Sequence record: PQ471460.1
From: Escherichia phage vB_EcoM_JE01
Strand: one strand, 5' to 3'
DNA length: 64,000 bases
A model generated the notes under the pieces. That model saw nothing but the letters and a program-made list of their open reading frames with translations, was not told where the DNA came from and made no database searches. Within the stretch, counting starts at the first letter, position 1. Every line of letters begins with the position of its first letter. Positions 5,309-49,281 of the stretch are shown in pieces. Made by a program: the position numbers and the translations under genes.

Positions 5309-6736
5309 GTGGTAGAAATTATTCTTTCTCATCTTATATTTGATCAAGCTTATTTTTCAAAAGTTTGGCCATATATGGATTCAGAATATTTTGAAAGTGG
5401 TCCAGCTAAAAATACATTCAAATTAATTAAATCTCATGTTAATGAGTACCATAGCGTTCCATCTATTAATGCGTTAAATGTTGCATTAGAAAATAGTTCA
5501 TTTACTGAAACAGAATATTCTGGTGTAAAAACACTTATTTCAAAACTAGCTGATTCTCCAGAAGACCACAGCTGGTTAGTAAAAGAAACAGAAAAATATG
5601 TTCAGCAAAGGGCGATGTTTAACGCCACATCTAAAATAATTGAAATTCAAACCAATGCTGAGCTTCCTCCAGAAAAACGAAATAAGAAAATGCCGGATGT
5701 AGGTGCTATTCCTGACATTATGCGCCAAGCATTATCAATTTCATTTGATAGCTACGTTGGCCATGATTGGATGGATGACTATGAAGCACGTTGGCTATCT
5801 TATATGAATAAAGCTCGTAAGGTTCCATTTAAACTCAAAATTCTAAATAAAATTACTAAAGGCGGAGCTGAAACTGGAACACTGAATGTTTTAATGGCTG
5901 GTGTTAACGTCGGTAAGTCATTAGGTCTGTGTTCATTGGCAGCAGATTATTTGCAGCTCGGACATAATGTTCTTTACATTTCAATGGAAATGGCAGAAGA
6001 AGTCTGTGCTAAGCGTATTGACGCTAATATGCTCGATGTTTCTCTTGATGACATTGATGATGGGCATATTTCTTACGCTGAGTATAAAGGAAAAATGGAA
6101 AAATGGCGTGAGAAATCTACTCTTGGACGTTTAATCGTTAAACAGTATCCTACTGGTGGAGCAGACGCTAATACATTTCGTTCTCTTTTGAACGAATTGA
6201 AGCTCAAGAAGAATTTTGTTCCAACAATCATTATTGTTGACTATCTAGGTATTTGTAAATCTTGTCGCATCAGAGTTTATTCAGAAAATAGTTACACAAC
6301 TGTTAAAGCTATCGCAGAGGAATTGCGTGCTCTGGCTGTTGAAACCGAAACTGTTCTTTGGACTGCAGCACAGGTTGGTAAACAAGCTTGGGATTCTTCT
6401 GATGTTAACATGAGCGATATTGCAGAATCCGCCGGTCTTCCAGCAACAGCTGATTTTATGCTTGCGGTCATTGAAACCGAGGAGTTAGCAGCGGCTGAAC
6501 AACAACTCATTAAGCAAATCAAATCACGATATGGTGATAAGAATAAATGGAATAAGTTTTTGATGGGTGTTCAAAAAGGAAATCAGAAATGGGTAGAAAT
6601 TGAACAAGATTCTACTCCAACTGAAGTGAACGAAGTAGCAGGTTCACAGCAGATTCAGGCTGAACAGAACCGCTATCAAAGAAATGAATCGGCTCGAGCT
6701 CAGTTAGATGCTTTAGCAAACGAATTAAAATTTTAG
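5309..6736 (+). CDS. 41: Replicative DNA helicase gp41 (DnaB family), 475 aa
   Basis: 475 aa, Walker A GVNVGKS, RecA-like C-terminal domain; synteny. Confidence 0.9.
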   Translation: MVEIILSHLIFDQAYFSKVWPYMDSEYFESGPAKNTFKLIKSHVNEYHSVPSINALNVALENSSFTETEYSGVKTLISKLADSPEDHSWLVKETEKYVQQRAMFNATSKIIEIQTNAELPPEKRNKKMPDVGAIPDIMRQALSISFDSYVGHDWMDDYEARWLSYMNKARKVPFKLKILNKITKGGAETGTLNVLMAGVNVGKSLGLCSLAADYLQLGHNVLYISMEMAEEVCAKRIDANMLDVSLDDIDDGHISYAEYKGKMEKWREKSTLGRLIVKQYPTGGADANTFRSLLNELKLKKNFVPTIIIVDYLGICKSCRIRVYSENSYTTVKAIAEELRALAVETETVLWTAAQVGKQAWDSSDVNMSDIAESAGLPATADFMLAVIETEELAAAEQQLIKQIKSRYGDKNKWNKFLMGVQKGNQKWVEIEQDSTPTEVNEVAGSQQIQAEQNRYQRNESARAQLDALANELKF

Positions 6737-6765
6737 TTTACAAGCTGACAAGACTATGGTATAGT
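6736..6765 (+). promoter_or_regulatory. T4-type early promoter (IR-flanked -10)
   Basis: GTTTAC 6736-6741, 18-bp spacer, TATAGT 6760-6765; 9-bp inverted repeat ACAAGACTA/TAGTCTTGT at 6748-6756 and 6765-6773. Confidence 0.6.
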
Positions 6766-6794
6766 AGTCTTGTTGGTTAAATGAGGAGATTGTT

Positions 6795-6977
6795 ATGGAA
6801 TTGGTAAAGGTAGTTTTTATGGGGTGGTTTAAGAATGAAAGCATGTTTACTAAAGAAATCACAATGATGAAAGATGACGTTCAATGGGCTACTACTCAAT
6901 ATGCTGAAGTTAATAAAGCATTAGTTAAAGCTTTCATTGATGACAAGAAAGTATGCGAAGTGGATTGCCGAGGGTAA
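6795..6977 (+). CDS. dmd: Dmd antitoxin-like protein (60 aa)
   Basis: 60-aa ORF immediately downstream of gene 41, matching T4 Dmd (61.5) length and position. Confidence 0.7.
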   Translation: MELVKVVFMGWFKNESMFTKEITMMKDDVQWATTQYAEVNKALVKAFIDDKKVCEVDCRG

Positions 6978-6978
6978 T

Positions 6979-7221
6979 ATGCATATCGTTTTATTTAAAC
7001 CTACTCCGTATAATGTCAGGAAAAATACTCAATTCAAGGCACTTATTGCGGATACGTGGGAATTGATGTTAGATATTCCAGCAGAAGAAAGTCCTCCATT
7101 TGGTCGAGTGGAATTTATTAAGTTTGCTGTGCGCCCTACGAAGCGACAGATTCGCCAATGCAAAAGATACTTTCGTAAAATCGTCAAGTTAGAGAAACAG
7201 TTATTGATGCTAGTAAAATAG
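6979..7221 (+). CDS. Hypothetical protein (80 aa; 61.4-position)
   Basis: ATG 6979 with GAGGG RBS; ORF-track frame 6937..7221. Confidence 0.4.
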   Translation: MHIVLFKPTPYNVRKNTQFKALIADTWELMLDIPAEESPPFGRVEFIKFAVRPTKRQIRQCKRYFRKIVKLEKQLLMLVK

Positions 7222-7223
7222 TA

Positions 7224-7253
7224 GTTTACAAGCTGATAGAGTTGTGTTATAGT
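7224..7253 (+). promoter_or_regulatory. T4-type early promoter (IR-flanked -10)
   Basis: GTTTAC 7224-7229, TATAGT 7248-7253; 10-bp inverted repeat AGCTGATAGA/TCTATCAGCT at 7231-7240 and 7257-7266. Confidence 0.6.
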
Positions 7254-7284
7254 AATTCTATCAGCTAATCGCGGAGAAAAGAAA

Positions 7285-7539
7285 ATGATGCTAGTTAATA
7301 GAGAATATCAGTTTAAATCAGAAGAAGATTTGGAAAAATTCGCAAGTGGTTGTGAACTGAATAGACGCACAGCTAAAGTCATAGGATTAAAACCCTTTAC
7401 AGTTCTAGATTGTGAAGTTTCTAAATTCCGCAGAGGGTGTTCTATTAGCGGTCATGCTCTGGTTGATGGAAACACATTTTTCTTTGTTTTTAGCGTCAGA
7501 GAACTTTTATTGATTAACGAACTTGAGGAAATAAAATAG
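7285..7539 (+). CDS. Hypothetical protein (84 aa)
   Basis: ORF downstream of early promoter. Confidence 0.4.
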   Translation: MMLVNREYQFKSEEDLEKFASGCELNRRTAKVIGLKPFTVLDCEVSKFRRGCSISGHALVDGNTFFFVFSVRELLLINELEEIK

Positions 7540-7569
7540 TTTACTTTTGTTAGAAATTGAGATACTATA
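7539..7569 (+). promoter_or_regulatory. T4-type early promoter
   Basis: GTTTAC 7539-7544, 19-bp spacer, TACTAT 7564-7569. Confidence 0.5.
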
Positions 7570-7596
7570 TAAACATAAACTACTGAGGAGATTATC

Positions 7597-7890
7597 ATGA
7601 AAAAATTTGTTTTTGCTGCAATTTTTGCTTTAGCTTCTTGTGCTGCTCAGCCTGCTATGGCAGGTTATGATAAAGATTTGTGCGAATGGTCTATGACTGC
7701 AGATCAGACTGAGGTTGAAACTCAGATTGAAGCAGATATTATGAATATCGTTGAGCGTGATCGCCCTGAAATGAAAGCTGAAGTACAAAAACAGCTTAAA
7801 TCTGGTGGTGTAATGCAGTATAATTATGTTCTGTATTGCGATAAAAACTTCAATAATAAAAATATCATCGCTGAAGTGGTAGGTGAATAA
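7597..7890 (+). CDS. sp: Spackle (Sp) periplasmic protein, 97 aa
   Basis: 97 aa with cleavable signal peptide MKKFVFAAIFALASCAAQPAMA; position in the 61.x cluster as T4 sp. Confidence 0.7.
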   Translation: MKKFVFAAIFALASCAAQPAMAGYDKDLCEWSMTADQTEVETQIEADIMNIVERDRPEMKAEVQKQLKSGGVMQYNYVLYCDKNFNNKNIIAEVVGE

Positions 7891-8516
7891 TGCTTTATCA
7901 AATGCACAAGTGCAAAGACACGTACAAATATAAAGGTGCCCAGTGTTATATCATTAATCGTGAAAACGCAGGTCCAGGTCATTCGCATCAATCGCGGTTT
8001 GTATTCGTTAAAAACAACGAAATTATAGCAGTTGCTAATTACATGCTTGCGACTAGTGATGTTAATCCGGTGCCTTTCACATATTATAATCTAATGGACT
8101 TGGCGTACGATTATAATTGGTTTAATCATGATAATTTGGCTCATATTGAAGGCGTAGGATTTGACATCTCTTATTCTAGTTACTCGTTGTGTCCTATGAG
8201 CCGAGCTCATAAAGAGCCTGAATATTTTTCATTTCGTCGGCGTGTAGACTTTGAACGCAGCACAGAGTATATCGGTGGAATCTTTGTTAAAGATAATCGA
8301 ATTACTCGCATTATTTATCCTTTGGGCTGTGGTCAAAAAGATATTGATGTTGATTTAGACTTTACTGAAAACATCATTAATCATATTGCTTCTGTGTATT
8401 TTGATATTGATCATAAAATTGTAATATGTGGATATGAATTACCATCAGAAAAACAGTCTAAAGTGAATGTTTCTATTGATGACCAAATTTTTAATGCTTT
8501 TATGAATAGAGGTTAA
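7890..8516 (+). CDS. Hypothetical protein (208 aa; 61.2-position)
   Basis: ORF, ATGA-type coupling to sp. Confidence 0.5.
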   Translation: MLYQMHKCKDTYKYKGAQCYIINRENAGPGHSHQSRFVFVKNNEIIAVANYMLATSDVNPVPFTYYNLMDLAYDYNWFNHDNLAHIEGVGFDISYSSYSLCPMSRAHKEPEYFSFRRRVDFERSTEYIGGIFVKDNRITRIIYPLGCGQKDIDVDLDFTENIINHIASVYFDIDHKIVICGYELPSEKQSKVNVSIDDQIFNAFMNRG

Positions 8517-8517
8517 T

Positions 8518-8682
8518 ATGAAAACGTTTAAAGAATTTATCAAAGAAGATATGGTCACTGGAGATTCAGGTGGTAATCCTGAAAATATCTCCACTGGAAC
8601 AACATCAGGTGCTGTAGTAAATAAAGGTCCTGAACAGATTCCTAAAAAGAAAAAAGAGGAATCTAAAGAAAAAGAAGAGTAA
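8518..8682 (+). CDS. Small hydrophilic protein (54 aa)
   Basis: ATG 8518, lysine/glutamate-rich C-terminus; below ORF-track cutoff. Confidence 0.35.
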   Translation: MKTFKEFIKEDMVTGDSGGNPENISTGTTSGAVVNKGPEQIPKKKKEESKEKEE

Positions 8683-8684
8683 AA

Positions 8685-9713
8685 ATGTCATCAATACCTT
8701 GGATTGATAATGAGTTTGCATACCGTGCATTAGCTCATTTACCTAAATTCACACAAGTAAATAATAGTTCAACTTTTAAATTACGGTTTAGATGCCCTGT
8801 TTGTGGAGATTCAAAAACCGACCAAAATAAAGCCCGTGGATGGTATTATGGCGATAATAATGAAGGAAATATTCATTGTTATAACTGTAACTATCATGCA
8901 CCAATCGGAATATATTTAAAGGAGTTTGAACCTGATTTATATCGTGAGTATATCTTTGAAATAAGAAAAGAAAAAGGTAAAAGTCGTCCAGTAGAAAAAC
9001 CTAAAGAACTTCCTAAACAACCCGAGAAGAAAATAATTAAATCTCTTCCGTCATGCATTAGATTAGATAAACTGGCGGAAGACCATCCAATTATAAAATA
9101 CGTAAAAGCTCGTTGTATTCCAAAGGATAAATGGAAATATCTTTGGTTTACAACTGAATGGCCTAAATTAGTTAATAGTATAGCACCAGGAACATATAAA
9201 AAGGAAATACCTGAGCCTCGTCTTGTTATTCCAATTTATAATGCTAATGGAAAAGCTGAGTCTTTTCAAGGACGTGCATTAAAGAAAGATGCTCCCCAAA
9301 AATATATCACCATCAAAGCTTATCCTGAGGCAACAAAAATTTATGGTGTTGAACGAGTTAAAGATGGTGATGTATATGTTCTAGAAGGACCTATAGATTC
9401 ACTTTTTATTGAAAATGGTATAGCTATTACGGGTGGTCAATTAGACCTAGAAATTGTTCCATTTAAAGATAGACGTGTATGGGTTTTAGATAATGAACCT
9501 CGTCACCCTGACACTATTAAACGAATGACTAAATTAGTTGATGCAGGAGAAAGGGTTATGTTTTGGGATAAATCTCCCTGGAAATCAAAAGATGTCAATG
9601 ATATGATTAGAAAGGAAGGTGCAACCCCTGAACAAATTATGGAATATATGAAAAATAATATTGCCCAAGGGCTGATGGCTAAAATGCGGCTATCTAAATA
9701 TGCTAAGATTTAA
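8685..9713 (+). CDS. 61: DNA primase gp61, 342 aa
   Basis: 342 aa; zinc-ribbon CPVCGDS...CYNCN and TOPRIM-like core. Confidence 0.9.
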   Translation: MSSIPWIDNEFAYRALAHLPKFTQVNNSSTFKLRFRCPVCGDSKTDQNKARGWYYGDNNEGNIHCYNCNYHAPIGIYLKEFEPDLYREYIFEIRKEKGKSRPVEKPKELPKQPEKKIIKSLPSCIRLDKLAEDHPIIKYVKARCIPKDKWKYLWFTTEWPKLVNSIAPGTYKKEIPEPRLVIPIYNANGKAESFQGRALKKDAPQKYITIKAYPEATKIYGVERVKDGDVYVLEGPIDSLFIENGIAITGGQLDLEIVPFKDRRVWVLDNEPRHPDTIKRMTKLVDAGERVMFWDKSPWKSKDVNDMIRKEGATPEQIMEYMKNNIAQGLMAKMRLSKYAKI

Positions 9714-9910
9714 ATTAACCCAACCAAAGCAAATGCTAAATCTACGAATGTATCAAGAGTAATTACTGGAATACTAACGCCATGAGCAATAGCAACTGGC
9801 GATAAAACAAAATTCCAAAGTAAAATTCCTATCATAGCAGAAATAGTAAAAGCTATACGTTTTTTATTACCTTTGATGGCATTAACAAGTGCCATTAATT
9901 TTTGTACCAT
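9710..9910 (-). CDS. Hypothetical small membrane protein (66 aa), antisense to the early gene block
   Basis: Strong RBS AGGAGG 4 nt before ATG on minus strand; two hydrophobic segments. Confidence 0.45.
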   Translation of the reverse strand: MVQKLMALVNAIKGNKKRIAFTISAMIGILLWNFVLSPVAIAHGVSIPVITLDTFVDLAFALVGLI

Positions 9911-9920
9911 ATGTCCTCCT

Positions 9921-9947
9921 TATTGCTTTATATATTTATTGTATAAT
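9921..9947 (+). promoter_or_regulatory. MotA-dependent middle promoter candidate upstream of HNH gene
   Basis: Perfect MotA box tatTGCTTTA (TGCTT 9924-9928), 13 nt gap, TATAAT 9942-9947. Confidence 0.5.
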
Positions 9948-9980
9948 TAATCTACTAACCCATGAATTGAAAGGATATAT

Positions 9981-10631
9981 GTGAATTACCAAAAAATTTA
10001 CTCGGCTTTAATTACAAAAGCTAAATGCCGGCATCTTGGTGGATATAAAGAACGCCATCATATAATTCCTAGATGTATGGGAGGAGCAGATGACAAAAAC
10101 AATCTTGTTGAGTTAACTGCGCGTGAGCATTTTATAGCTCATAGATTATTAACCAAAATATATCCAGATGTGAGAGGATTGCATTATGCTGTAAATTTAA
10201 TGCGATATAATAAAGGTGTTAAATTAACAAGTAGATTAATAGAAACCCTTAAAATTCAAAACTCTGTTCTTTTCTCGGGTGAAAATAATCCTAGATATGG
10301 CAAGCCGTCATGGATTAAAGGCAAAAAGACCCCAGAAGAAACTAAAGCCAAAATGCGTCTAGCTCATAAAGGTAAAATTATATCCGATGAAGCCAAGGCT
10401 AATATGAGTAAAGCCCGAAAAGGAAGATTTAGCGGTAAAAATTCACCTCGATATTGTTTACCGAATCCAAGACGTGGTGAGATATGGAATTCGTATGATT
10501 CGCTTTACGAGTTGTGGGTTTATAATAATAGACCTAAGCGCACAAAATTTAATAAAATAGCTGTCAAGGCAGGTTATCCTAATATCTGCTATAGACATAT
10601 GATAGAAAACTTCATAAGAAAGGAAAAATAA
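9981..10631 (+). CDS. HNH homing endonuclease (216 aa, GTG start)
   Basis: HNH motif ERHHIIPRCMGGADDKNNLVELTAREHFIAH plus NUMOD-like repeats (ENNPRYGKP, KAKMRLAHKGK, KANMSKARKG). Confidence 0.7.
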   Translation: MNYQKIYSALITKAKCRHLGGYKERHHIIPRCMGGADDKNNLVELTAREHFIAHRLLTKIYPDVRGLHYAVNLMRYNKGVKLTSRLIETLKIQNSVLFSGENNPRYGKPSWIKGKKTPEETKAKMRLAHKGKIISDEAKANMSKARKGRFSGKNSPRYCLPNPRRGEIWNSYDSLYELWVYNNRPKRTKFNKIAVKAGYPNICYRHMIENFIRKEK

Positions 10632-10632
10632 C

Positions 10633-11151
10633 ATGCCACATTTCAACGAATGTAGTCATCTGATCGAAGGCGCTGATAAAGCTCAAAATGAATACTGGGA
10701 TATTCTCGGTGACGAAAAAGACCCGCTGCAAGTTATGCTTGATATGCAGAAATCTCTGCAAGTTCGTTTAGCTAAAGATAAACCTGAATATAATCGTCAT
10801 CCTGATGATTTGGCTACTGCTGGTGAAGTTGTTGATTGGCTGCGTAATCAGAAAGATTATATTGACGATGAATTCCGTGAACTTCTGACATCTCTTGGTG
10901 GTATGAGCAATGGCGAAAAAGATGCATCTGCTGTATGGAAGCCTTGGAAAGCTCAACATGGTGAACGCCGTGAAACTCTAATTACCGATTTGTCTCCGCA
11001 AGACCAGTTGGAAATTAAATTCGAAATGATTGATATTCTTCATTTCGTTCTGAACATGTTCCAAGGTCTTGGTCTTACAGCTGAAGAAATCTTTAAACTT
11101 TATTATCTGAAAAATGCTGAAAACTTCGCTCGTCAAGACCGAGGTTATTAA
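10633..11151 (+). CDS. 56: dCTPase / dCTP pyrophosphatase gp56 (172 aa)
   Basis: MazG-like protein of T4 gp56 length, upstream of soc. Confidence 0.85.
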   Translation: MPHFNECSHLIEGADKAQNEYWDILGDEKDPLQVMLDMQKSLQVRLAKDKPEYNRHPDDLATAGEVVDWLRNQKDYIDDEFRELLTSLGGMSNGEKDASAVWKPWKAQHGERRETLITDLSPQDQLEIKFEMIDILHFVLNMFQGLGLTAEEIFKLYYLKNAENFARQDRGY

Positions 11152-11184
11152 TATAAACGACAGCTTAAAAGCCGTGAGAATTAT

Positions 11185-11192
11185 TATAAATA
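11185..11192 (+). promoter_or_regulatory. Late promoter TATAAATA for soc
   Basis: Exact TATAAATA 31 nt upstream of soc ATG. Confidence 0.6.
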
Positions 11193-11222
11193 ATCATGTA
11201 ATTTAAATAAAAGGAGAATTAC

Positions 11223-11468
11223 ATGGCTAGTACTCGCGGTTATGTTAATATCAAAACATTTGAGCAGAAATTAGATGGAAATAAGAAAATTGAAGGAAAG
11301 GAAATTTCAGTAGCTTTCCCTCTTTATTCTGACGTTCACAAAATTTCTGGCGCTCATTACCAGACATTCCCTTCAGAAAAAGCAGCATATACTACTGTAT
11401 ATGAAGAAAATCAACGTGATGCATGGATTGCTGCAAACGAAGATTTGTGGAAAGTAACTGGTGAATAA
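11223..11468 (+). CDS. soc: Small outer capsid protein Soc (81 aa)
   Basis: Near-identical to T4 Soc as I recall it (MASTRGYVNIKTFEQKLDGNKK...). Confidence 0.9.
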   Translation: MASTRGYVNIKTFEQKLDGNKKIEGKEISVAFPLYSDVHKISGAHYQTFPSEKAAYTTVYEENQRDAWIAANEDLWKVTGE

Positions 11469-11474
11469 ATTCAA

Positions 11475-11498
11475 GGACTCCTTCGGGAGTCCTTTTTT
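11475..11498 (+). terminator. Intrinsic terminator after soc
   Basis: GGACTCC-TTCG-GGAGTCC hairpin followed by TTTTTT. Confidence 0.7.
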
Positions 11499-11508
11499 CA
11501 TTTTACCG

Positions 11509-11538
11509 GTTTACTTTCCAAAACAAGTATGGTATAAT
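11509..11538 (+). promoter_or_regulatory. T4-type early promoter
   Basis: GTTTAC 11509-11514, 18-bp spacer, TGgTATAAT (TATAAT 11533-11538). Confidence 0.65.
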
Positions 11539-11564
11539 AAAATTATCTTATAGAGGAGAGCACC

Positions 11565-11771
11565 ATGTTAAATCGTTGGATTAAACCAAATGAAGATTTA
11601 GATATTATCATTTCACGGCATGTAATGAAGAAATATGAACTACAACCATGGTCTACAGAAGTTGTTGTGCATTCATTTATGATGTACGCAGATGGTTCTG
11701 TCGAATTTAATGCAGAGATTCGATATGATTATGGTGAGAAGCAAGTTGAATTCAAGAGAGGCTTTTTGTAA
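11565..11771 (+). CDS. Hypothetical protein (68 aa)
   Basis: ORF with GGAG RBS downstream of early promoter. Confidence 0.45.
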   Translation: MLNRWIKPNEDLDIIISRHVMKKYELQPWSTEVVVHSFMMYADGSVEFNAEIRYDYGEKQVEFKRGFL

Positions 11772-12112
11772 TGTTTATCTTTAATTGGTTTAAAAATTTC
11801 TTTACGGATTTTTTCTTTACAGCTCCTGGAGAAGGTGTAGTTCCTATTTCAAATGACTACCTTCCTTTAACTGTAGTTGAATATGTTTATATGGGAGATG
11901 GAACAGTAGAAGCAGTTACTATGACTTATGAAGAAGCCCAGGAATATTATAAAAATCCTTGGCGCTGGTCAACACCTACTACATCATCTAATACACAGAA
12001 TACACAGTCTAATTCTGATTCATATGATACTAATGTTCCTGTTCATGTATGGACGGGCGATTCATGTGGAAGTTCTTGTGATTCTAGTTGTTCATCTACA
12101 TCTTGCGATTGA
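11771..12112 (+). CDS. Hypothetical protein with Cys/Ser-rich C-terminal tail (113 aa)
   Basis: ORF ATGA-coupled to upstream ORF; C-terminus [18 protein letters not shown]. Confidence 0.4.
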
Positions 12113-12120
12113 GGAAAATT

Positions 12121-12606
12121 ATGGAAGCGATTTTGTTTGAAATGTATATTAGCAGTAATAGCATGTCGTTTGCTAAAGATGTTCCAATTACAGTAGCAGT
12201 AATGATTGATAAAAGATATGATAATAGCATGTATCTAGTAGAAGATTTTATTTCAATGCCAGTTCCAGAAGATGTTGAAATAAAACTTAAAAAGATCGGA
12301 ATTATTGAAACTGTACGAAATTCTCCATTTATGTCAATTCAAGCATTTACTAAATCTAACTATATTGATGTTGCTGAAGCATATTATAACAATAAACCGT
12401 TGCCATTATATTCATATGATTCAATATATGACTGGAAAGTAGATAAGGGAAATAAATTTATAATTACGGAAGAAAATGCGCTATCATATTTTATTACCTC
12501 TTTATGGAATAATTTAAATCCAAATTTGCTAAAAATTCATAAATTCGATGATGCTCCTACTGTTGTTTTAGGTAAAATAAATGAAAGTTCTGAAGAAAAT
12601 GTTTGA
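12121..12606 (+). CDS. Hypothetical protein (161 aa)
   Basis: ATG 12121 with GAGGAAAA RBS; frame of ORF 12088..12606. Confidence 0.45.
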
Positions 12607-12784
12607 ATGGTTCAATAGACCAAACTCAATGTACATTGATGATGGTTGGGTTGAACAAGCAAATAAAGAAATGCAGAACGAATCAGAAGAATGGATGAAA
12701 TCAATGATTAATGCTGAGAAAGAAAAGAAATTAGAACGCTCAGCGCTTAAATTGATGAGAGACATCTATGGGGATAAATCATGA
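12581..12784 (+). CDS. Hypothetical protein (67 aa)
   Basis: ORF overlapping neighbours, translational-coupling arrangement. Confidence 0.3.
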
Positions 12785-12945
12785 ACAGAGATATGACGCT
12801 AGAAGAGGCCAAGGCTAAAGCAAATGAAGCATTGGATTTGCTTCTTAAAATTGGCAGTAAAATGATGGAAGAGAATGAAAAATATATCCAGGAAAACAAA
12901 ATTCCTGACGGCCCATTAGTAGGCAAAAGGAAATCACATGATTGA
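12781..12945 (+). CDS. Hypothetical protein (54 aa)
   Basis: ATGA overlap with preceding ORF; below ORF-track cutoff. Confidence 0.3.
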
Positions 12946-13408
12946 AGTAGCAAAACATTATTCAATAGAATTTATGTCTAAAGAAGGTAAATCAGTAAAT
13001 ACGCTTGATAAAAAGTGCTCATTAATTATTCCTTTAGCAGAAAATCCGGATCTTTTAATTAAAGATATAAAAGAAAGAAAATACCCAGAAAATGTTATCC
13101 TAATTATAAAGCATACTGAAGATATTTTGCAGAATACTGATTCACCATTTTCTTCTTCTGAAGCTTTAACTATTAAAGGATATAAAAGAGCTCATGAATA
13201 TGGTCTTTTTGACCTGTTTGAAGATGATAACGTTAAATTAGCGAGTCAACCTTCTAAAAGTAAAACATTCATTATTGAAGATATTAAAGACATAAATGCA
13301 TTTGTTAAGATGGTCTGGGCTCATTTTGATGTTGGACTACGCTGGAGAATGTCCGAAGAAGAAAGAAAGATCATTGAAGCTAATCGTTATTTTGGTTTTT
13401 ATCGCTAG
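12938..13408 (+). CDS. Hypothetical protein (156 aa)
   Basis: ORF in the soc-modB interval. Confidence 0.45.
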
Positions 13409-13416
13409 GAATTAAT

Positions 13417-13599
13417 ATGGATTTATTTGAGATGTTAGAAGATAATCATTCTACGAATATCCAGAATGATTCTAGTGATTATAAGAAAGAGTACCGTATA
13501 GTATTACAGAATTATGGAATTGAAGCCCCAGATGCTCTTCTAGAAGAACTAGCTTCATACCATCTTGACCCTCCGCCCTGGGCTCCCTGGGCAAAATAA
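13417..13599 (+). CDS. Hypothetical protein (60 aa)
   Basis: ORF; C-terminus encoded by unusual GC-rich tandem CCCTGGGC repeat. Confidence 0.35.
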   Translation: MDLFEMLEDNHSTNIQNDSSDYKKEYRIVLQNYGIEAPDALLEELASYHLDPPPWAPWAK

Positions 13600-13610
13600 T
13601 TCAAAAAGTT

Positions 13611-13640
13611 GTTTACTTTCCTTCCTAACAATGATATGAT
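13611..13640 (+). promoter_or_regulatory. T4-type early promoter
   Basis: GTTTAC 13611-13616, 18-bp spacer, TATGAT 13635-13640. Confidence 0.55.
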
Positions 13641-13666
13641 AGCTTCTGAAGTATATGGAGGCTATC

Positions 13667-14290
13667 ATGATTATTAATCTTGCAGATGTTGAACAGTTAT
13701 CTATAAAAGCTGAAAGCGTTGATTTTCAACATGATATGTATAAAAAGGTCTGTGAAAAATTTACTGACTTTGAACAATCAGTTCTTTGGCAATGTATGGA
13801 AGCCAAAAAGAATGAAGCTCTTCATCGGCAGTTGAATAAAATCATTAAAAAGCATTTAACTGAATCACCTTATCAGTTATATCGTGGTATATCAAAATCG
13901 ACAAAAGAACTCATTAAAGATTTACAAGTCGGAGAAGTGTTTTCAACGAACAGAGTAGATTCATTTACTACTAGTTTGCACACAGCGTGTTCTTTTTCTT
14001 ATGCTGAATATTTCACTGAAATAATATTTCGCTTAAAAACTGATAAAGCTTTTAATTATTCTGACCATATCAGCGATATTATACTTTCTTCTCCTAATAC
14101 TGAGTTTAAGTATACATATGAAGATACTGATGGATTAGATTCAGAACGTACTGATAACTTAATGATGATTGTACGTGAACAAGAATGGATGATTCCAATT
14201 GGAAAGTATAAAATAACTTCTATTTCAAAAGAAAAATTACACGATTCATTTGGAACATTTAAAGTGTATGATATTGAGGTAGTTGAATGA
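13667..14290 (+). CDS. modB: ADP-ribosyltransferase ModB (207 aa)
   Basis: ART motifs: YRG, STS-like FTTSL, EQEWMIP; GGAGG RBS before ATG 13667; order modB->modA as in T4. Confidence 0.7.
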   Translation: MIINLADVEQLSIKAESVDFQHDMYKKVCEKFTDFEQSVLWQCMEAKKNEALHRQLNKIIKKHLTESPYQLYRGISKSTKELIKDLQVGEVFSTNRVDSFTTSLHTACSFSYAEYFTEIIFRLKTDKAFNYSDHISDIILSSPNTEFKYTYEDTDGLDSERTDNLMMIVREQEWMIPIGKYKITSISKEKLHDSFGTFKVYDIEVVE

Positions 14291-14889
14291 AATATTCAGC
14301 AATGCAATTAAAAGATTTTAAAATCAAATCAATGGATGCATCGGTGCGTGCTTCTATTCGTGAAGAATTACTTTCTGAAGGATTTAATTTATCTGAAATT
14401 GAACTTTTAATTCATTGTATTACTAATAAGCCAGACGACCACTCTTGGTTAAATGAAATAATCAAATCTCGTTTGGTTCCAAACGATAAACCTCTTTGGA
14501 GAGGTGTTCCAGTTGAGACTAAGCAAGTGTTAAATCAAGGAATTGATATTATTACATTTGATAAAGTAGTATCAGCTTCATATGATAAAAATATAGCTCT
14601 ACATTTTGCTTCTGGATTAGAATACAATACACAAGTTATTTTTGAATTCAAAGCTCCTATGGTATTTAATTTTCAGGAGTATGCTATAAAAGCTCTACGT
14701 TGTAAAGAATATAGTCCAAGTTTTAAGTTTCCAGATAGCCATCGCTATCGTAATATGGAATTAGTTTCAGATGAACAAGAAGTAATGATACCAGCTGGAA
14801 GTGTATTTAGAATTGCGGATAGATACGAGTATAAAAAGTATTCAACATACACTATCTATACTCTTGACTTTGAAGGATTTAATCTATAA
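14287..14889 (+). CDS. modA: ADP-ribosyltransferase ModA (200 aa)
   Basis: ART motifs LWRG, SAS, EQEVMIP; paralog of adjacent modB; 200 aa as T4 ModA. Confidence 0.7.
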   Translation: MKYSAMQLKDFKIKSMDASVRASIREELLSEGFNLSEIELLIHCITNKPDDHSWLNEIIKSRLVPNDKPLWRGVPVETKQVLNQGIDIITFDKVVSASYDKNIALHFASGLEYNTQVIFEFKAPMVFNFQEYAIKALRCKEYSPSFKFPDSHRYRNMELVSDEQEVMIPAGSVFRIADRYEYKKYSTYTIYTLDFEGFNL

Positions 14890-14945
14890 TGGAAGGACTT
14901 AGATTCATTATACCATGAAAGTTTTAAAGCATTTTTCATAAAGTT

Positions 14946-14975
14946 GTTTACAAGCTGAAGTAAAAATGTTATAGT
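14946..14975 (+). promoter_or_regulatory. T4-type early promoter
   Basis: GTTTAC 14946-14951, 18-bp spacer, TATAGT 14970-14975. Confidence 0.55.
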
Positions 14976-15004
14976 ATAAGTAGTTAACCGTCCGTGAGAA
15001 AAAT

Positions 15005-15751
15005 ATGAAACTGTCTAAAAATCAAATTCGTAAAATTACACGTCGTCTAGAGCATACTCAGGCATCTGCTAAAAGACGTTCTAAAGATTTTAACTTAGAC
15101 TTCAATTACATTAAGAACATTTTAGATCAGAAAGTTTGCGCTTACTCGGGAGAACCTTTTGATAATCATATTGAAGGAGAGAAATTATCATTAGAACGTT
15201 TTGATAATAACGTTGGATACATTAAAGGGAATGTTATTGCAGTAAAGAAAAAGTATAATACATTTCGTTCTGATTATACTTTAGAAGAGTTGATTGAAAA
15301 GCGTGATTTATTTGCTTTGCGAATTGGTCGTTCATCTGCGAAAAAAGTTCATAAACTAAATTTAGATGAAAAGAAATGGGCTAAAATCAAAAAGACTTAT
15401 AATCAAATTAAAGCTATACAGAAAAAACGCGAAAACCGAATTGAGCACATTTCTCAGCTTTCTAAATCAAAACAAACCTCTGACGTTAAGCTAACGATTA
15501 TAGCACTTAAAGCTCGTATTGATGGTTCTCGTATAGCAGAAGGCGCTGAAGTTGTTAAACTAAACGTTCTTCTTAAAGGCTCGGATTGGAAAACTGTGAA
15601 AAAATTGTCAGAAGCAGAAATGCAATATGATATGTGTGATAAAATTATTCAAGGTGTAGAGCGGTATCAAAACTTGTCTTTTATTGATAAACTTAAACTG
15701 AAAAGAGGATACCCGCTAAATTGTTCAATTTTTAAACTTATCCGAGGATAA
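15005..15751 (+). CDS. Hypothetical early protein (248 aa), in the srd position
   Basis: ORF between modA and dda; lysine-rich; identity to T4 srd not verifiable from memory. Confidence 0.4.
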   Translation: MKLSKNQIRKITRRLEHTQASAKRRSKDFNLDFNYIKNILDQKVCAYSGEPFDNHIEGEKLSLERFDNNVGYIKGNVIAVKKKYNTFRSDYTLEELIEKRDLFALRIGRSSAKKVHKLNLDEKKWAKIKKTYNQIKAIQKKRENRIEHISQLSKSKQTSDVKLTIIALKARIDGSRIAEGAEVVKLNVLLKGSDWKTVKKLSEAEMQYDMCDKIIQGVERYQNLSFIDKLKLKRGYPLNCSIFKLIRG

Positions 15752-15752
15752 T

Positions 15753-16064
15753 ATGTTTTATGTATATGCGATAGTGTATAGAGATAAAGATGGATTTGCG
15801 GTGCCTGTTCCGCTTGATGAACATCGTCCTGCTGTATTTTTTGAAAGGGAGATTGCTGATAAAGTATTTACTACTCTTAAAGAGCAGTATCAACTAGCTT
15901 TAGGTATGGGAATTCCGAGATTAGTTGAGACTCCACGCAAGTTTTGGTTTAATAAAATAGAAGTTAAACACGTTAAGCCTGATGTAGACACACAAAGATT
16001 ATATCGGCGAATTTTAGATACTGGGCGTATTGTTAGTATACCAATTGCAGGGAATTTACGATGA
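15753..16064 (+). CDS. Hypothetical protein (103 aa)
   Basis: ORF tightly coupled to dda start. Confidence 0.4.
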   Translation: MFYVYAIVYRDKDGFAVPVPLDEHRPAVFFEREIADKVFTTLKEQYQLALGMGIPRLVETPRKFWFNKIEVKHVKPDVDTQRLYRRILDTGRIVSIPIAGNLR

Positions 16065-17380
16065 CATTTGATGATTTGACCGAAGGCCAGAAAAATGCCT
16101 TTAACATCGTTATGAGGGCTATTAAAGAAAAGAAACATCATGTAACTATTAATGGACCTGCTGGTACTGGTAAGACTACTCTTACTAAGTTCATCATTGA
16201 AGCTTTAATATCTACGGGCGAAACTGGAATTATTTTAGCAGCTCCTACACATGCAGCTAAAAAGATTCTTTCAAAACTATCAGGGAAAGAAGCGAGTACT
16301 ATTCACAGTATTCTTAAAATTAACCCAGTAACATACGAAGAAAACGTTCTTTTTGAACAAAAAGAAGTACCGGATTTAGCTAAATGCAGAGTATTAATCT
16401 GCGACGAAGTATCAATGTATGATAGAAAGCTATTTAAAATTCTGCTTTCAACTATTCCACCTTGGTGTACTATAATTGGAATAGGCGATAATAAGCAAAT
16501 TAGACCTGTTGACCCAGGAGAAAACATTGCTTATATCAGTCCATTCTTTACGCACAAAGATTTTTATCAATGTGAACTCACTGAAGTTAAACGCAGTAAT
16601 GCTCCTATTATTGATGTAGCTACTGATGTTCGCAACGGTAAGTGGATTTATGATAAAATTGTTGACGGGCATGGAGTACGTGGATTTACTGGTGATACCG
16701 CTTTACGCGATTTTATGGTAAATTATTTTTCAATCGTCAAATCGCTAGATGATTTGTTTGAAAATCGCGTAATGGCATTTACGAATAAATCTGTTGATAA
16801 GTTAAATAGCATTATTCGCAAAAAGATTTTTGAAACTGATAAAGATTTTATCGTTGGTGAAATTATTGTAATGCAGGAACCATTAATTAAAACATATAAA
16901 ATTGATGGAAAGCCTGTGTCAGAAATTATTTTTAATAATGGACAATTAGTTCGTATTATAGAAGCAGAGTATACATCAACATTTGTTAAAGCTCGTGGTG
17001 TTTCTGGAGAATATCTAATTCGTCATTGGGATTTAACAGTAGAAACTTACGGCGATGATGAATATTATCGTGAAAAGATTAAAATAATTTCATCTGATGA
17101 AGAGCTGTATAAGTTTAACCTATTTTTAGGTAAAACGGCAGAAACGTATAAAAATTGGAATAAAGGTGGAAAAGCTCCGTGGAGTGATTTTTGGGATGCT
17201 AAATCACAGTTTAGTAAAGTGAAAGCACTTCCTGCATCAACATTTCACAAAGCTCAGGGCATGTCTGTAGACCGTGCTTTCATCTATACACCTTGTATTC
17301 ATTATGCAGATGCTGAATTGGCTCAGCAGCTTCTTTATGTTGGTGTCACTCGTGGTCGTTATGATGTGTTTTATGTGTGA
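16061..17380 (+). CDS. dda: Dda DNA helicase (SF1B), 439 aa
   Basis: Walker A GPAGTGKT; near-identical to T4 Dda as I recall it; 439 aa. Confidence 0.9.
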   Translation: MTFDDLTEGQKNAFNIVMRAIKEKKHHVTINGPAGTGKTTLTKFIIEALISTGETGIILAAPTHAAKKILSKLSGKEASTIHSILKINPVTYEENVLFEQKEVPDLAKCRVLICDEVSMYDRKLFKILLSTIPPWCTIIGIGDNKQIRPVDPGENIAYISPFFTHKDFYQCELTEVKRSNAPIIDVATDVRNGKWIYDKIVDGHGVRGFTGDTALRDFMVNYFSIVKSLDDLFENRVMAFTNKSVDKLNSIIRKKIFETDKDFIVGEIIVMQEPLIKTYKIDGKPVSEIIFNNGQLVRIIEAEYTSTFVKARGVSGEYLIRHWDLTVETYGDDEYYREKIKIISSDEELYKFNLFLGKTAETYKNWNKGGKAPWSDFWDAKSQFSKVKALPASTFHKAQGMSVDRAFIYTPCIHYADAELAQQLLYVGVTRGRYDVFYV

Positions 17381-17386
17381 GGATAT

Positions 17387-17647
17387 ATGATTAACATCAA
17401 TTCAAAATATTTAAATCGTCTAATAGATGGTATAAAGAAGCATACTGATAAGCAAGATAACCTCAGTGTTATGATAACAGGAGCTGAGCTCCTTTATAAG
17501 CTTAATCTTATAAGTGATACTATACTAGCAATTAAACGAATTGAAAAACAATCATATCATAGTAATACAGACACGGTAATTACGCTAGATGAAAGTGTCT
17601 GTAAGCTGCTGATTAAATTTGAGGAAGCTATTCGTGGAAATAACTAA
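17387..17647 (+). CDS. Hypothetical protein (86 aa)
   Basis: ORF. Confidence 0.35.
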   Translation: MININSKYLNRLIDGIKKHTDKQDNLSVMITGAELLYKLNLISDTILAIKRIEKQSYHSNTDTVITLDESVCKLLIKFEEAIRGNN

Positions 17648-17879
17648 AGATCAGTTTTATCTTCTTCAAGATAAAGTAAGCGAAATTTATGAAATATCTT
17701 ATAGTAAAAATTATGAAACTGTAAAAATTGAGTCTAGTAAGTTAATGCTTCAATTGGAAGAAATTGAACGAGATTTGACTGCGTTAGAATTCTTTTGCGG
17801 TAGAGTGAAAACTGTCACAATCAGTGATTATATTTTAGGTGAAATTAGCCATCTTTATAAGGCGATTATTAATGTTTGA
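17619..17879 (+). CDS. Hypothetical protein (86 aa)
   Basis: ORF. Confidence 0.35.
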   Translation: MRKLFVEITKDQFYLLQDKVSEIYEISYSKNYETVKIESSKLMLQLEEIERDLTALEFFCGRVKTVTISDYILGEISHLYKAIINV

Positions 17880-18555
17880 TTTTATTATAGATTTTGAAAC
17901 AATGGGAAGCGGTGAAAAGGCAGCTGTTATTGATTTGGCTGTTATTGCCTTTGACCCTAATCCAGAAGTAGTTGAAACATTTGATGAATTAGTTTCACGT
18001 GGCATTAAAATCAAATTTGATTTAAAAAGTCAAAAAGGACATCGTCTTTTTACTAAAAGCACTATCGAATGGTGGAAAAATCAATCTCCTGAAGCTCGAA
18101 AAAATATTGCGCCATCAGATGAAGATGTAAGCACTATCGATGGTATTGCAAAATTTAATGATTACATCAATGCGCATAATATCGATCCTTGGAAATCTCA
18201 GGGCTGGTGCCGTGGAATGTCGTTTGATTTTCCAATTTTAGTTGATCTCATTCGCGATATTCAACGTCTTAACGGCGTTTCCGAGAATGAGCTTGACACA
18301 TTTAAGTTAGAACCTTGTAAATTCTGGAATCAGCGTGATATTCGTACCAGAATTGAAGCACTTCTGCTTGTTCGTGATATGACCACGTGTCCTCTTCCAA
18401 AAGGAACTTTAGATGGATTCGTTGCACATGATTCTATTCATGACTGTGCGAAAGACATCCTGATGATGAAGTATGCTTTGCGATATGCTATGGGTCTTGA
18501 AGACGCTCCGTCAGAGGAAGAGTGCGATCCTCTATCTCTTCCAACAAAACGATAA
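17872..18555 (+). CDS. dexA: Exonuclease A DexA (DEDD family), 227 aa
   Basis: ATG 17872; N-terminal FIIDFETMG exonuclease motif; 227 aa as T4 DexA. Confidence 0.8.
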   Translation: MFDFIIDFETMGSGEKAAVIDLAVIAFDPNPEVVETFDELVSRGIKIKFDLKSQKGHRLFTKSTIEWWKNQSPEARKNIAPSDEDVSTIDGIAKFNDYINAHNIDPWKSQGWCRGMSFDFPILVDLIRDIQRLNGVSENELDTFKLEPCKFWNQRDIRTRIEALLLVRDMTTCPLPKGTLDGFVAHDSIHDCAKDILMMKYALRYAMGLEDAPSEEECDPLSLPTKR

Positions 18556-18561
18556 AAAGTT

Positions 18562-18591
18562 GTTTACTTCCTCGGTTAGTTGTGGTATTAT
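18562..18591 (+). promoter_or_regulatory. T4-type early promoter
   Basis: GTTTAC 18562-18567, 18-bp spacer, TGTGGTATTAT (TATTAT 18586-18591). Confidence 0.55.
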
Positions 18592-18618
18592 AACACCATA
18601 GCTACTGAGGATAATAAA

Positions 18619-19119: not shown

Positions 19120-19121
19120 TT

Positions 19122-19655: not shown

Positions 19656-19667
19656 TAGTTTACAAAC

Positions 19668-19697
19668 TCTTGGGACCAGAGTATAATGGTCCCGTGG
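19668..19697 (+). promoter_or_regulatory. T4-type early promoter (IR-flanked -10)
   Basis: GTTTAC 19668-19673, TATAAT 19692-19697; 7-bp inverted repeat GGGACCA/TGGTCCC at 19682-19688 and 19697-19703. Confidence 0.6.
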
Positions 19698-19731
19698 AGT
19701 ATAAAATCTTTTTAACAAGTGAGAGATAAGT

Positions 19732-20229: not shown

Positions 20230-20252
20230 AGTTTAAATTTTTTCATAAAACT

Positions 20253-20299
20253 ATATACATCAGTAGTTGATTATGGTATTATATCAATATCAACTACTG
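20253..20299 (+). promoter_or_regulatory. Promoter-like element inside an 11-bp perfect inverted repeat
   Basis: TGgTATTAT (TATTAT 20277-20282) flanked by CAGTAGTTGAT (20261-20271) and ATCAACTACTG (20289-20299); -35 degenerate (ATATAC). Confidence 0.4.
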
Positions 20300-20400
20300 A
20301 TACAGAAAACAACTTGGAGAATAAAATGGAAAATTTGCCAAAGGTGCTGCTACTCTTCTGAAACGCATCGCTCCACTGTTCAATTAATGAGGAAATTGTA

Positions 20401-28555: not shown

Positions 28556-28750
28556 GTTCATTATGGTGGTGTTTTGTTTGGTTAATTAGTATTCCATTAA
28601 TTTGTTTAACATTTACTTTTGTGATGAGGTTATTATGAAAATTTTTAATTCTGTACTTATTGCTTGTGCGTGGTGGGTTGCACAAGTTTCGGCAGTAGTA
28701 ATTGGTATTCACATTTATTACGAATATTTTTAAAAAAGTTGTTTACAAGA

Positions 28751-28780
28751 CTGTTCCTCTGTGGTATTATTACTCTATCA
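28751..28780 (+). promoter_or_regulatory. T4-type early promoter
   Basis: GTTTAC 28751-28756, 18-bp spacer, TGTGGTATTAT (28775-28780). Confidence 0.6.
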
Positions 28781-31877: not shown

Positions 31878-31907
31878 GTTTACAACCAAAGCATACTATG
31901 GTACTAT
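31878..31907 (+). promoter_or_regulatory. T4-type early promoter (motA)
   Basis: GTTTAC 31878-31883, 18-bp spacer, TGgTACTAT (31902-31907); near-identical to element at 48514. Confidence 0.65.
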
Positions 31908-31948
31908 ACAACTATCAACTACTGATACAGAATTACGGAGATTAGAAA

Positions 31949-48441: not shown

Positions 48442-48463
48442 TAGATTATATTACTAATTAATT

Positions 48464-48488
48464 GGGGACCCTAGAGGTCCCCTTTTTT
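48464..48488 (+). terminator. Intrinsic terminator after gene 32
   Basis: GGGGACC-CTAGA-GGTCCCC hairpin followed by TTTTTT. Confidence 0.75.
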
Positions 48489-48513
48489 ATTTCAAAATTT
48501 TTTTCACAAAACT

Positions 48514-48543
48514 GTTTACAACCAAAGCATACTGTGGTACTAT
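48514..48543 (+). promoter_or_regulatory. T4-type early promoter
   Basis: GTTTAC 48514-48519, 18-bp spacer, TGTGGTACTAT (48538-48543). Confidence 0.65.
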
Positions 48544-48589
48544 ACAACTATCGGCAATACTGCTGATGATGATTAAAGAGGAAAATAAC

Positions 48590-48817
48590 ATGGCTAAAAT
48601 TGATATTGATGTTGTTGATTTTGAATATATTGAAGAAATTATTCGTAATCGTTATCCTGAACTCCGTATCATAAGCGCACTAAATGATCCTAATTGCAAT
48701 GTTTCAGTTGTTATTGAAGGTCCTTTAAATCGTCTTAAACAATTTATGGTTAATGAATATTGTGACGGTATGGATGCTGAAGATGTAGAATTTTACACAG
48801 GATTTATTGAGCAGTAA
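48590..48817 (+). CDS. Hypothetical protein (75 aa)
   Basis: ATG 48590 with GAGGAAAA RBS. Confidence 0.45.
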
Positions 48818-48824
48818 TTATTAA

Positions 48825-48840
48825 GGGGCTATCAAGCCCC
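48825..48840 (+). other. Intercistronic hairpin
   Basis: GGGGCT-ATCA-AGCCCC. Confidence 0.45.
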
Positions 48841-48861
48841 TATTAAAATGAGGAAAACACA

Positions 48862-49227
48862 ATGTATATTGGTAGAAAATATGAACTTGTTCCAAGACTT
48901 ATTGATACATTTATTAATTATCGCCCGCGTTCTAATTCATCAATAGTTAAAATTATTCAAGAAAATGGCGGATGGTTTGAAGTTAAAGAAGCTTTCTTTG
49001 CTGATGGATTTAGAGTAATAAAACACATTGAATGCGCTAATGGAAAGCATTTTTACTTCAACGTCTGTGAAGACGAATTTCATTGTTTCCGCGAGTATAA
49101 AGAACTGACTTCTGAAGAAGATGAAGTCGAAGACAAGATTTCTGGCGTAACAAAAATTCACTGCATTGTAGACGAAAACAATGTAGATGAAATCATTGAA
49201 CTTTTGCGAAAAACTTTCAAAAAGTAG
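48862..49227 (+). CDS. Hypothetical protein (121 aa)
   Basis: ORF with GAGGAAAA RBS. Confidence 0.45.
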   Translation: MYIGRKYELVPRLIDTFINYRPRSNSSIVKIIQENGGWFEVKEAFFADGFRVIKHIECANGKHFYFNVCEDEFHCFREYKELTSEEDEVEDKISGVTKIHCIVDENNVDEIIELLRKTFKK

Positions 49228-49256
49228 TTTACAGAAGGGTAGTAGTGTGATACTAT
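49227..49256 (+). promoter_or_regulatory. T4-type early promoter (IR-flanked -10)
   Basis: GTTTAC 49227-49232, TACTAT 49251-49256; imperfect 9-bp inverted repeat GGGTAGTAG/CTATTACCC at 49237-49245 and 49253-49261. Confidence 0.55.
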
Positions 49257-49281
49257 TACCCTATCAACTAAGGAGAATAAA

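Follow-up and report, generated by a model that had tools for sequence, protein, structure and literature searches.

Promoter-embedded stem-loops of T4-type phages, published under the name PeSL, were defined in phages RB49 and phi1. The element contains an early promoter of the sigma-70 type, the DNA upstream of which is A/T-rich, and lies between an upstream stop codon on one side and a downstream Shine-Dalgarno sequence and ATG on the other (Arbiol 2010, Genome Biol Evol 2:140, PMC2839356). In the published view the stem-loops are terminators or attenuators, and a drop in expression is on record for a single RB49 stem-loop. PeSLs were also described in the PST/T4 pair, with the consensus TTTACW-N17-TAYWAT and variable "AGNA-loop-TCNT" stems (Comeau, Arbiol & Krisch 2014, Genome Biol Evol 6:1611, PMC4122927). 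A second precedent comes from T4 itself, in which hairpins containing a promoter mask the ribosome-binding sites of e, soc, 49 and I-TevI (Uzan & Miller 2010, PMC3014915). Here we analyse a stretch of 64,000 nucleotides (nt) from Escherichia phage vB_EcoM_JE01 (record PQ471460.1; "the window"), in which several early promoters carry an inverted repeat around the -10 element. We consider it probable that these elements are PeSLs, so named in 2010 and 2014, and their discovery is to that extent already made. The residual value of the present analysis is mechanistic, and lies in the signs of selection on sense-strand pairing, the missing terminator tail and a subset of hairpins that pair with the ribosome-binding site.

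The window is Tequatrovirus DNA, with 96-99% identity to many T4-like coliphages, and is collinear with T4 from ~28.3 kb, down through the origin, to ~131.5 kb; early transcription runs along its + strand. The pattern GTTTAC-N18-TAnnnT matches 19 times in the window, on the + strand only, and 36 times in T4, always on the corresponding strand, with P6736, P7224 and P19658 among the best matches in a consensus scan (promoters are named after the first position of the -35 element). When the variant promoter P20253 is added to the 19 strict ones, a hairpin spanning the -10 element is found at 9 of 20 early promoters, with RNA folding energies (dG) of -9.6 to -24.4 kcal/mol and z scores of -4.4 to -7.4.

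Five of these nine had been pointed out in a reading made from the letters alone (the sequence-only reading), and all five repeats exist. The 9-bp repeat at P6736 (6748-6756/6765-6773) and the 10-bp repeat at P7224 (7231-7240/7257-7266) are as described there, and form the Watson-Crick cores of longer helices; the former extends to 15 bp (6743-6757/6764-6778) when G.U pairs are allowed. For P19658 the 7-bp arms (GGGACCA/TGGTCCC) were right and the interval of 19682-19703 was not, as it begins at the -10 hexamer; the arms lie at 19672-19678/19687-19693. The repeat at P20253 is indeed perfect, with 13 bp in place of the 11 given, and the promoter, listed as GTTTAC-type, has ATATAC as its -35 element. 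At P49227 a repeat with one mismatch was correctly seen, its length being 10 Watson-Crick pairs plus one G.T and not 9 bp. The description of the -10 hexamer as bracketed by the arms holds approximately, as part of it lies inside the right arm at P6736 and P49227. The count of five was also incomplete: P18562, P28741, P58326 and P61647 had been passed over, and their helices are mostly comparable or stronger. Folding agrees with the sequence-only reading that P1267, P28235, P31878 and P48514 have no such repeat. The nine hairpins fall into two classes. In class B (P18562, P28741 and P58326) the Shine-Dalgarno sequence of the next gene is part of the helix. In class A (P6736, P7224, P19658, P20253, P49227 and P61647) it is unpaired; this class includes all five flagged sites, at which the Shine-Dalgarno sequence lies 4-25 nt past the helix.

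Short repeats are to be expected in AT-rich DNA, and the sequence-only reading had itself proposed a comparison with shuffled controls. With a minimum free energy of at most -12 kcal/mol in 50 nt as the threshold, 8 of the 19 strict window promoters are structured, against 4.8% of background windows, and T4 gives much the same picture (16/36 promoters against 4.9%); together, 42-44% of promoters in the window and T4 are structured against a background of ~5%. In a sliding profile the stability maximum falls exactly over the -10 element, and the flanks are unstructured. For a wider comparison we gathered promoters from the window, from T4 and from IMG/VR loci of ~35 T4-like phages, 248 of them distinct, dereplicated them to 121 clusters, and counted those with no fewer than 9 Watson-Crick pairs around the -10 element. 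Two controls were used, namely shuffles of the flanks and chimeras in which the left half of a promoter is followed by the right half of a different one, the latter preserving any position-specific consensus. Helices of this size occur in 90 of 248 promoters against 9.3 in flank shuffles, and in 39 of 121 dereplicated promoters against 5.3 in shuffles and 7.5 +/- 2.8 in chimeras. Additionally, at none of the nine window hairpins did any of 200 dinucleotide shuffles match the observed energy. Chance palindromes of 4-6 bp are common, and a liberal helix finder reports at least 7 Watson-Crick pairs in 62 of 248 shuffled promoters; with the counts at 9 pairs, the energies and the covariation among orthologs described below all speaking against it, we give an origin by chance practically no credence. 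Chance was thus refuted by the shuffle control and by the ortholog comparison, the two tests that the sequence-only reading had suggested.

In the ortholog comparison for P49227, a hairpin across the -10 element is present in 24 of 25 distinct sequences (z -3.6 to -7.2), which come from phages with identity down to ~42% in the protein encoded downstream. These orthologs use about ten arm sequences, for example GGGTAGTAGT, GGCTATGGTA, GGTGTAGAGG, GGTGTAAGAT and GGAGCTATGC. Orthologs were folded one by one, and formal pair counts were confined to subsets in the same register. In the P49227 subset 90% of cells are paired, against 32-52% in slid-register controls, and compensatory changes occur at 7 of 15 pairs. 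The helix at P58326, upstream of alc, is found in 17 of 19 orthologs, with 94.5% of cells paired and compensatory changes at 4 of 13 pairs in its subset. At the P19658 locus, GAGAGCCAT/ATGGCTCTC stands in the place of the window's GGGACCA/TGGTCCC in a relative whose protein is 52% identical. The substitutions seen in the stems of close relatives are almost all transitions, exchanging G-C or A-U for G.U or the reverse. RNAalifold returned no structure for a MAFFT alignment of 17 class B orthologs; from clade to clade, the register of the helix moves by 1-3 nt. Judged from these sequences, hairpin pairing is conserved across genera while the arm sequence turns over.

This turnover also bears on the suggestion, made in the sequence-only reading, that the repeats could be sites for a dimeric DNA-binding protein. 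Dyad symmetry across the -10 element is the classical geometry of a repressor site, and each promoter could in principle carry an operator of its own. Nevertheless, no half-site is common to the promoters, orthologs swap whole arms yet retain pairing, arms (7-18 bp) and loops (3-28 nt) both vary widely in length, and the bias toward G.T mismatches described below would have no meaning for recognition of a duplex. Operators for a dimeric regulator are in our judgement highly improbable. We looked for a shared half-site and found arms that differ between sites and are replaced in orthologs; the same reading's description of the repeats as a structural pattern with no common operator was borne out, as the arms differ between promoters and between orthologs with pairing retained.

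The helices are asymmetric with respect to strand. Isolated mismatches within them comprise 78 G.T against 18 A.C, where shuffles give a ratio of ~1:1, and 29 against 8 after dereplication. The sense strand folds more stably than the antisense strand at all nine window hairpins, and the mean fold energies are -11.6 and -8.2 kcal/mol, respectively. Of the 106 hairpins that are well formed, 30 have the Shine-Dalgarno sequence of the next gene in the right arm, where it pairs with a CCTC or CTCC directly after the -35 element. These features are difficult to reconcile with an element that acts in DNA, i.e., a cruciform or a fold of the non-template strand that tunes open-complex formation or supercoil sensitivity, as the sequence-only reading had also proposed. 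The repeat is centred on the -10 element, as such a role would have it, and the antisense strand also outfolds its own shuffles (z -2.9 to -6.1), which is true of any inverted repeat. In a cruciform, however, both strands must pair, yet the tolerated mismatches are far more often G.T than A.C. Loops are mostly 6-16 nt and reach 28 nt, which disfavours extrusion. The helices span about -27 to +8, and in class B extend to the Shine-Dalgarno sequence at ~+25, whereas the transcription bubble covers 13 nt. Additionally, the repeat tracks an abutting upstream gene and no feature of the promoter. A DNA-level element is quite improbable on these grounds. A cruciform calls for near-perfect pairing on both strands and a short spacer, and was rejected as a candidate on the mismatch counts and the weaker antisense fold at 9 of 9 sites.

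The association with the upstream gene is strong. Where the upstream stop lies at most 30 nt from the -35 element, 33 of 74 promoters carry a hairpin, against 4 of 45 elsewhere (p = 2e-5, a value inflated despite dereplication because the sequences compared are related). The median gap between stop and -35 element is 2 nt for hairpin promoters and 31 nt for the others, and at the nine window sites the -35 element begins 2-26 nt after the first base of the upstream stop. Left arms occupy the spacer from -27 to -12. The G.T bias, the stability of the sense fold, the pairing with Shine-Dalgarno sequences and the abutting upstream gene together point to the sense-strand transcript as the site of action. 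As the expected start of the promoter lies within or beyond the right arm, the hairpin most likely forms, as far as sequence can tell, in read-through RNA from the upstream gene. RNA that begins at the embedded promoter should lack the helix by geometry, with its expected start ~7 nt past the -10 element and 3' of the left arm.

A simple model would account for the position of the hairpins. A compact junction of ~60 nt would be consumed by the -35 element, the -10 element and the ribosome-binding site, leaving as free positions the 18-nt spacer and the start region, so that the left arm would come to lie in the spacer and the right arm at +1 or beyond. A helix of at least 9 bp would straddle the -10 element because only spacer and start region can vary, and the -10 element would come to lie within or next to the loop. 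Transcription from an upstream promoter would then yield an RNA with the hairpin, and the embedded promoter an RNA without the left arm. In class B the Shine-Dalgarno sequence would be masked in read-through RNA and open in promoter-proximal RNA. For class A we infer an RNA-level role as an intercistronic barrier that would insulate adjacent cistrons, either by pausing or attenuating a read-through polymerase or by shielding the 3' end of the upstream mRNA; the latter would follow cleavage in the A-rich leader or at GGAG.

The published PeSL work favours a different role, in which class A hairpins are true terminators or attenuators of upstream transcription. That work reports that one RB49 PeSL stem-loop lowered lacZ as strongly as rrnB T1, and three window promoters at looser junctions (P11509, P31878 and P48514) have canonical terminators just upstream, which suggests functional equivalence. 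On the other hand, the lacZ assay confounds termination, mRNA stability and translation, and the stems are rich in A-U and G-U. Class A hairpins also lack a U-tract: of 106 hairpins, only 1 has 5 or more T among the 8 nt that follow, and A makes up 50% of the tail. A terminator scan called no hairpin-promoter site (sites in 6000-21000). We regard true termination by class A hairpins as unlikely, and canonical intrinsic terminators as a candidate were rejected for want of a U-rich tract and of G+C-rich stems.

The doubtful status of the published terminator role, with the tail that it would need absent, weighs in turn against the reading favoured here, as do the inflated p values noted above and a few further points. 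There is no hairpin in 41 of 74 compact junctions, i.e., the element is not obligatory. Action at the RNA level is inferred from sequence statistics, and a hairpin in sense-strand single-stranded DNA would give an identical G.T bias.

Stem-loops could also serve chiefly as recombination signals, in line with the "modular shuffling" proposed for PeSLs, with any effect on RNA secondary. The stem-loop would then be a recombinase target, or would promote an exchange by which cassettes of promoter and ORF are moved. Arbiol 2010 (PMC2839356) mapped mini-circle crossovers inside or beside the stem-loop, and 4 of 22 indels between the window and T4 abut GTTTAC promoters, including a 329-nt cassette of P7224 and an 84-aa open reading frame (ORF). 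Homologous exchange, however, needs common sequence, and no part of the promoter is less conserved than the arms; most of the indels are homing-endonuclease genes distant from promoters; and compensatory evolution, G.U bias and Shine-Dalgarno pairing are not predicted by such a role. A chiefly recombinational function is improbable, and a recombination role would be compatible with an RNA role rather than exclusive of it.

A broader proposal is that the hairpins are not terminators but a phage-wide, promoter-gated RNA switch, in which the leader made from a gene's own promoter is open and the read-through leader carries a hairpin. We put this forward tentatively, as a possibility that we would not yet bet on. 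Such a switch would cover roughly a third of T4-like early genes. Class B hairpins would silence read-through copies, so that immediate-early proteins, Alc among them, would cease to be made once early promoters are shut off, despite continuing middle-mode read-through, and class A hairpins would decouple the decay or processing of adjacent cistrons. This would add to the early-to-middle switch a general layer of post-transcriptional control, one not described in the T4 reviews PMC2988021 and PMC3014915. If this were confirmed, T4-like phages would routinely tell own-promoter from read-through early mRNA, which would bear on immediate-early shut-off and on the insulation of shuffled promoter-plus-ORF cassettes, and would be of use in annotating and engineering T4-like therapeutic phages.

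The coordinates of the nine promoters and their hairpins are collected in Table 1.

Table 1. Early promoters of the window with a hairpin across the -10 element, and the hairpins themselves (dG in kcal/mol).
Feature	Coordinates	Strand	Details	dG, sense	z	dG, antisense
Promoter P6736, 5' of dmd	6736..6765	+	-35 GTTTAC 6736-6741; -10 TATAGT 6760-6765; ATG 6795			
Class A hairpin of P6736	6743..6778	+	arms 6743-6757/6764-6778; 15 pairs, 4 G.U	-18.9	-6.2	-10.1
Promoter P7224	7224..7253	+	-35 7224-7229; -10 TATAGT 7248-7253			
Class A hairpin of P7224	7231..7266	+	arms 7231-7244/7253-7266; 14 pairs, 2 G.U (elsewhere 14-15)	-18.0	-5.6	-12.5
Promoter P18562	18562..18591	+	T4 promoter at 8218			
Class B hairpin of P18562	18569..18611	+	arms 18569-18586/18595-18611; 17 pairs	-23.7	-6.7	-13.7
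Promoter P19658, 5' of motB homologue	19658..19687	+	-10 TATAAT 19682-19687			
Class A hairpin of P19658	19666..19700	+	arms 19666-19678/19687-19700; 13 pairs	-19.7	-5.2	
Variant promoter P20253	20253..20282	+	-35 ATATAC 20253-20258; -10 TATTAT 20277-20282; A/T-rich upstream			
Class A hairpin of P20253	20259..20301	+	perfect 13-bp arms 20259-20271/20289-20301; inner helix 5 pairs	-20.2	-7.4	
Promoter P28741, ndd region	28741..28770	+	T4 promoter at 166807			
Class B hairpin of P28741	28751..28795	+	arms 28751-28765/28781-28795; 15 pairs	-23.2	-6.9	-14.9
Promoter P49227	49227..49256	+	-10 TACTAT 49251-49256; ATG 49282			
Class A hairpin of P49227	49234..49265	+	core arms 49236-49246/49252-49262; 10 Watson-Crick pairs + 1 G.U	-15.9	-5.2	
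Promoter P58326, rnlA-alc junction	58326..58355	+	T4 promoter at 136336			
Class B hairpin of P58326	58332..58382	+	arms 58332-58350/58365-58382; 18 pairs	-24.4	-6.2	-15.4
Promoter P61647	61647..61676	+	T4 promoter at 133331 (Pe133295 in T4 record)			
Class A hairpin of P61647	61658..61685	+	arms 61658-61669/61674-61685; 11 pairs, 3 G.U	-9.6	-4.4	

The -35 element overlaps the preceding stop codon both at P6736 (gene 41 stop, 6734-6736) and at P49227 (stop at 49225-49227). The P6736 hairpin holds most of the -10 element in its loop and is followed after 4 nt by a free Shine-Dalgarno sequence, GAGGAG; substitutions in its orthologs preserve the pairs. At P49227 it is the right arm that holds most of the -10 element. 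P7224 precedes an 84-aa ORF (7285-7539) that is absent from T4, and the repeat at P20253 is the only near-ideal palindrome among the sites. In class B, the partner of a CCTC in the spacer is a GAGG Shine-Dalgarno sequence both at P18562, where it belongs to the next gene (ATG 18619), and at P58326, where it belongs to alc (ATG 58384), and the right arm at P28741 includes the GGAGG of the gene starting at 28799. The P28741 hairpin differs from its T4 counterpart at three positions, each a pair-preserving exchange of G-C for G.U. The weakest helix, at P61647, is destabilised in this phage by an A.C mismatch where relatives have G-C, and its T4 counterpart has a dG of -16.3 kcal/mol.

Several of these sites have further peculiarities. 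For the T4 counterpart of P61647, a RefSeq note states that 133300-133313 (approximately window 61665-61678) is the "inverted complement of previously reported sequence", correcting Pe133295. These 14 nt correspond to the inner stem of the hairpin and its loop; what lies between the inverted arms had formerly been read in reverse, whether as an artefact or as a true flip. Downstream of P20253, the ORF at the next ATG is only 11 codons long here (MENLPKVLLLF; 20326-20361), and some relatives share the ATG and the first 5-6 codons before continuing with different sequence, which makes this a variable spot after a hairpin promoter. The leader made from P19658 has a second small hairpin at 19706-19727 (AUCUUUU...GAGAGAU), which includes the purine-rich stretch before ATG 19732 and is kept in close relatives; unlike the promoter hairpin, it would occur in promoter-proximal RNA. 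On IMG/VR contig 650627005, the gene at 49282 has a distant homolog (30% identity), and in the hairpin upstream of it (GGGAACAG...CTGTTCC followed by TTTTGTTG) the arms surround the -35 element and not the -10 element, and a T-rich tail is present. This weakly matched locus has a PeSL sub-architecture of another kind.

Among the window promoters without a hairpin, P1267, P28235, P31878 and P48514 share a near-identical cassette of ~65 nt, TTTTTCACAAAAC-N-GTTTACA...TGGTACTATACAACTATC, with copies at 1242-1310, 28210-28280, 31853-31925 and 48489-48560, none of which has a hairpin across the -10 element. A dispersed repeat of this length is long enough for homologous exchange. Canonical intrinsic terminators, each a G+C-rich hairpin with a T-run, lie at 11473-11494, 31816-31853 and 48464-48482, directly 5' of P11509, P31878 and P48514, and the T-run merges into the A/T-rich upstream region of the promoter. 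All three promoters lack a hairpin across the -10 element. That upstream terminators (three promoters) and -10 hairpins (nine) do not coincide is suggestive, with the window alone giving a non-significant P of ~0.15 by hand calculation.

A TATCAA motif stands at a fixed place 6-11 nt past the -10 element in many early promoters (e.g., 49259-49266 and 28773-28780), and frequently supplies the 3'-most bases of the right arm. Among the 121 dereplicated promoters, ATCAA starts exactly 7 nt after the -10 element in 36, from diverse T4-like phages, and is found anywhere in the 18-nt start window in 42, against 6.8 expected from shuffles of that window.

The 329-nt insertion relative to T4 at 7203-7531, which comprises P7224 and the 84-aa ORF (7285-7539), is a cassette indel of the PeSL type. 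It lies between two promoters, directly 5' of P7539, an early promoter also present in T4, and RefSeq records annotate a "goF mRNA metabolism modulator" within this stretch. Finally, a scan of the whole window at the Rfam gathering thresholds found no family. The region 50776-55473 is collinear, at 95% identity, with T4 145115-140420, which carries td with its group I intron and I-TevI; the intron was presumably missed by the Rfam scan through its inserted ORF.

When the window sites are set against the described systems, the resemblance to PeSLs is the closest. The window sites show the defining PeSL features of promoter, stem-loop and intergenic setting, and fit both the PST/T4 consensus and the AGNA-loop-TCNT stems. 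Each element is an early promoter with a stop codon at its 5' edge and a Shine-Dalgarno sequence and ATG at its 3' edge. The stem-loop lies between the -35 and -10 elements or over the latter, with G-T pairs allowed and variable arms. The A/T-rich upstream region is present at window promoters, including the variant P20253. PeSLs cluster among small non-essential early genes and beside some indels, an association that the window shows in part. The published work stresses termination and recombination, whereas here we find no U-tract, a sense-strand G.U bias, covariation and a division into classes A and B. The sense bias, the cross-genus covariation, the missing terminator tail and the A/B split are not reported in the texts of the PeSL papers, their figures and the older literature aside, and we claim no novelty for them.

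Class B is predicted to resemble the T4 e, soc, 49 and I-TevI hairpins, in that a 5' arm upstream of the embedded start pairs with the Shine-Dalgarno sequence and only RNA from the embedded promoter would be translatable. In those T4 genes, however, the promoter is a late one (TATAAATA) and a late protein is kept silent early, whereas here the promoter is an early sigma-70 promoter; moreover, none of the five flagged sites pairs with a Shine-Dalgarno sequence or AUG. Literature searches for early-promoter hairpins that mask a Shine-Dalgarno sequence and for maps of T4 transcript 3' ends yielded nothing usable. With rho-independent terminators the window elements share a stable hairpin in nascent RNA right after a gene, and differ from them in having no U-rich tract and stems that are not G+C-rich. 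Intercistronic stabiliser hairpins, whether of the REP type or 3' hairpins left by processing, are intergenic, have no U-tract and conserve structure over sequence. The window hairpins resemble them in all three respects, and differ in being superimposed on a promoter.

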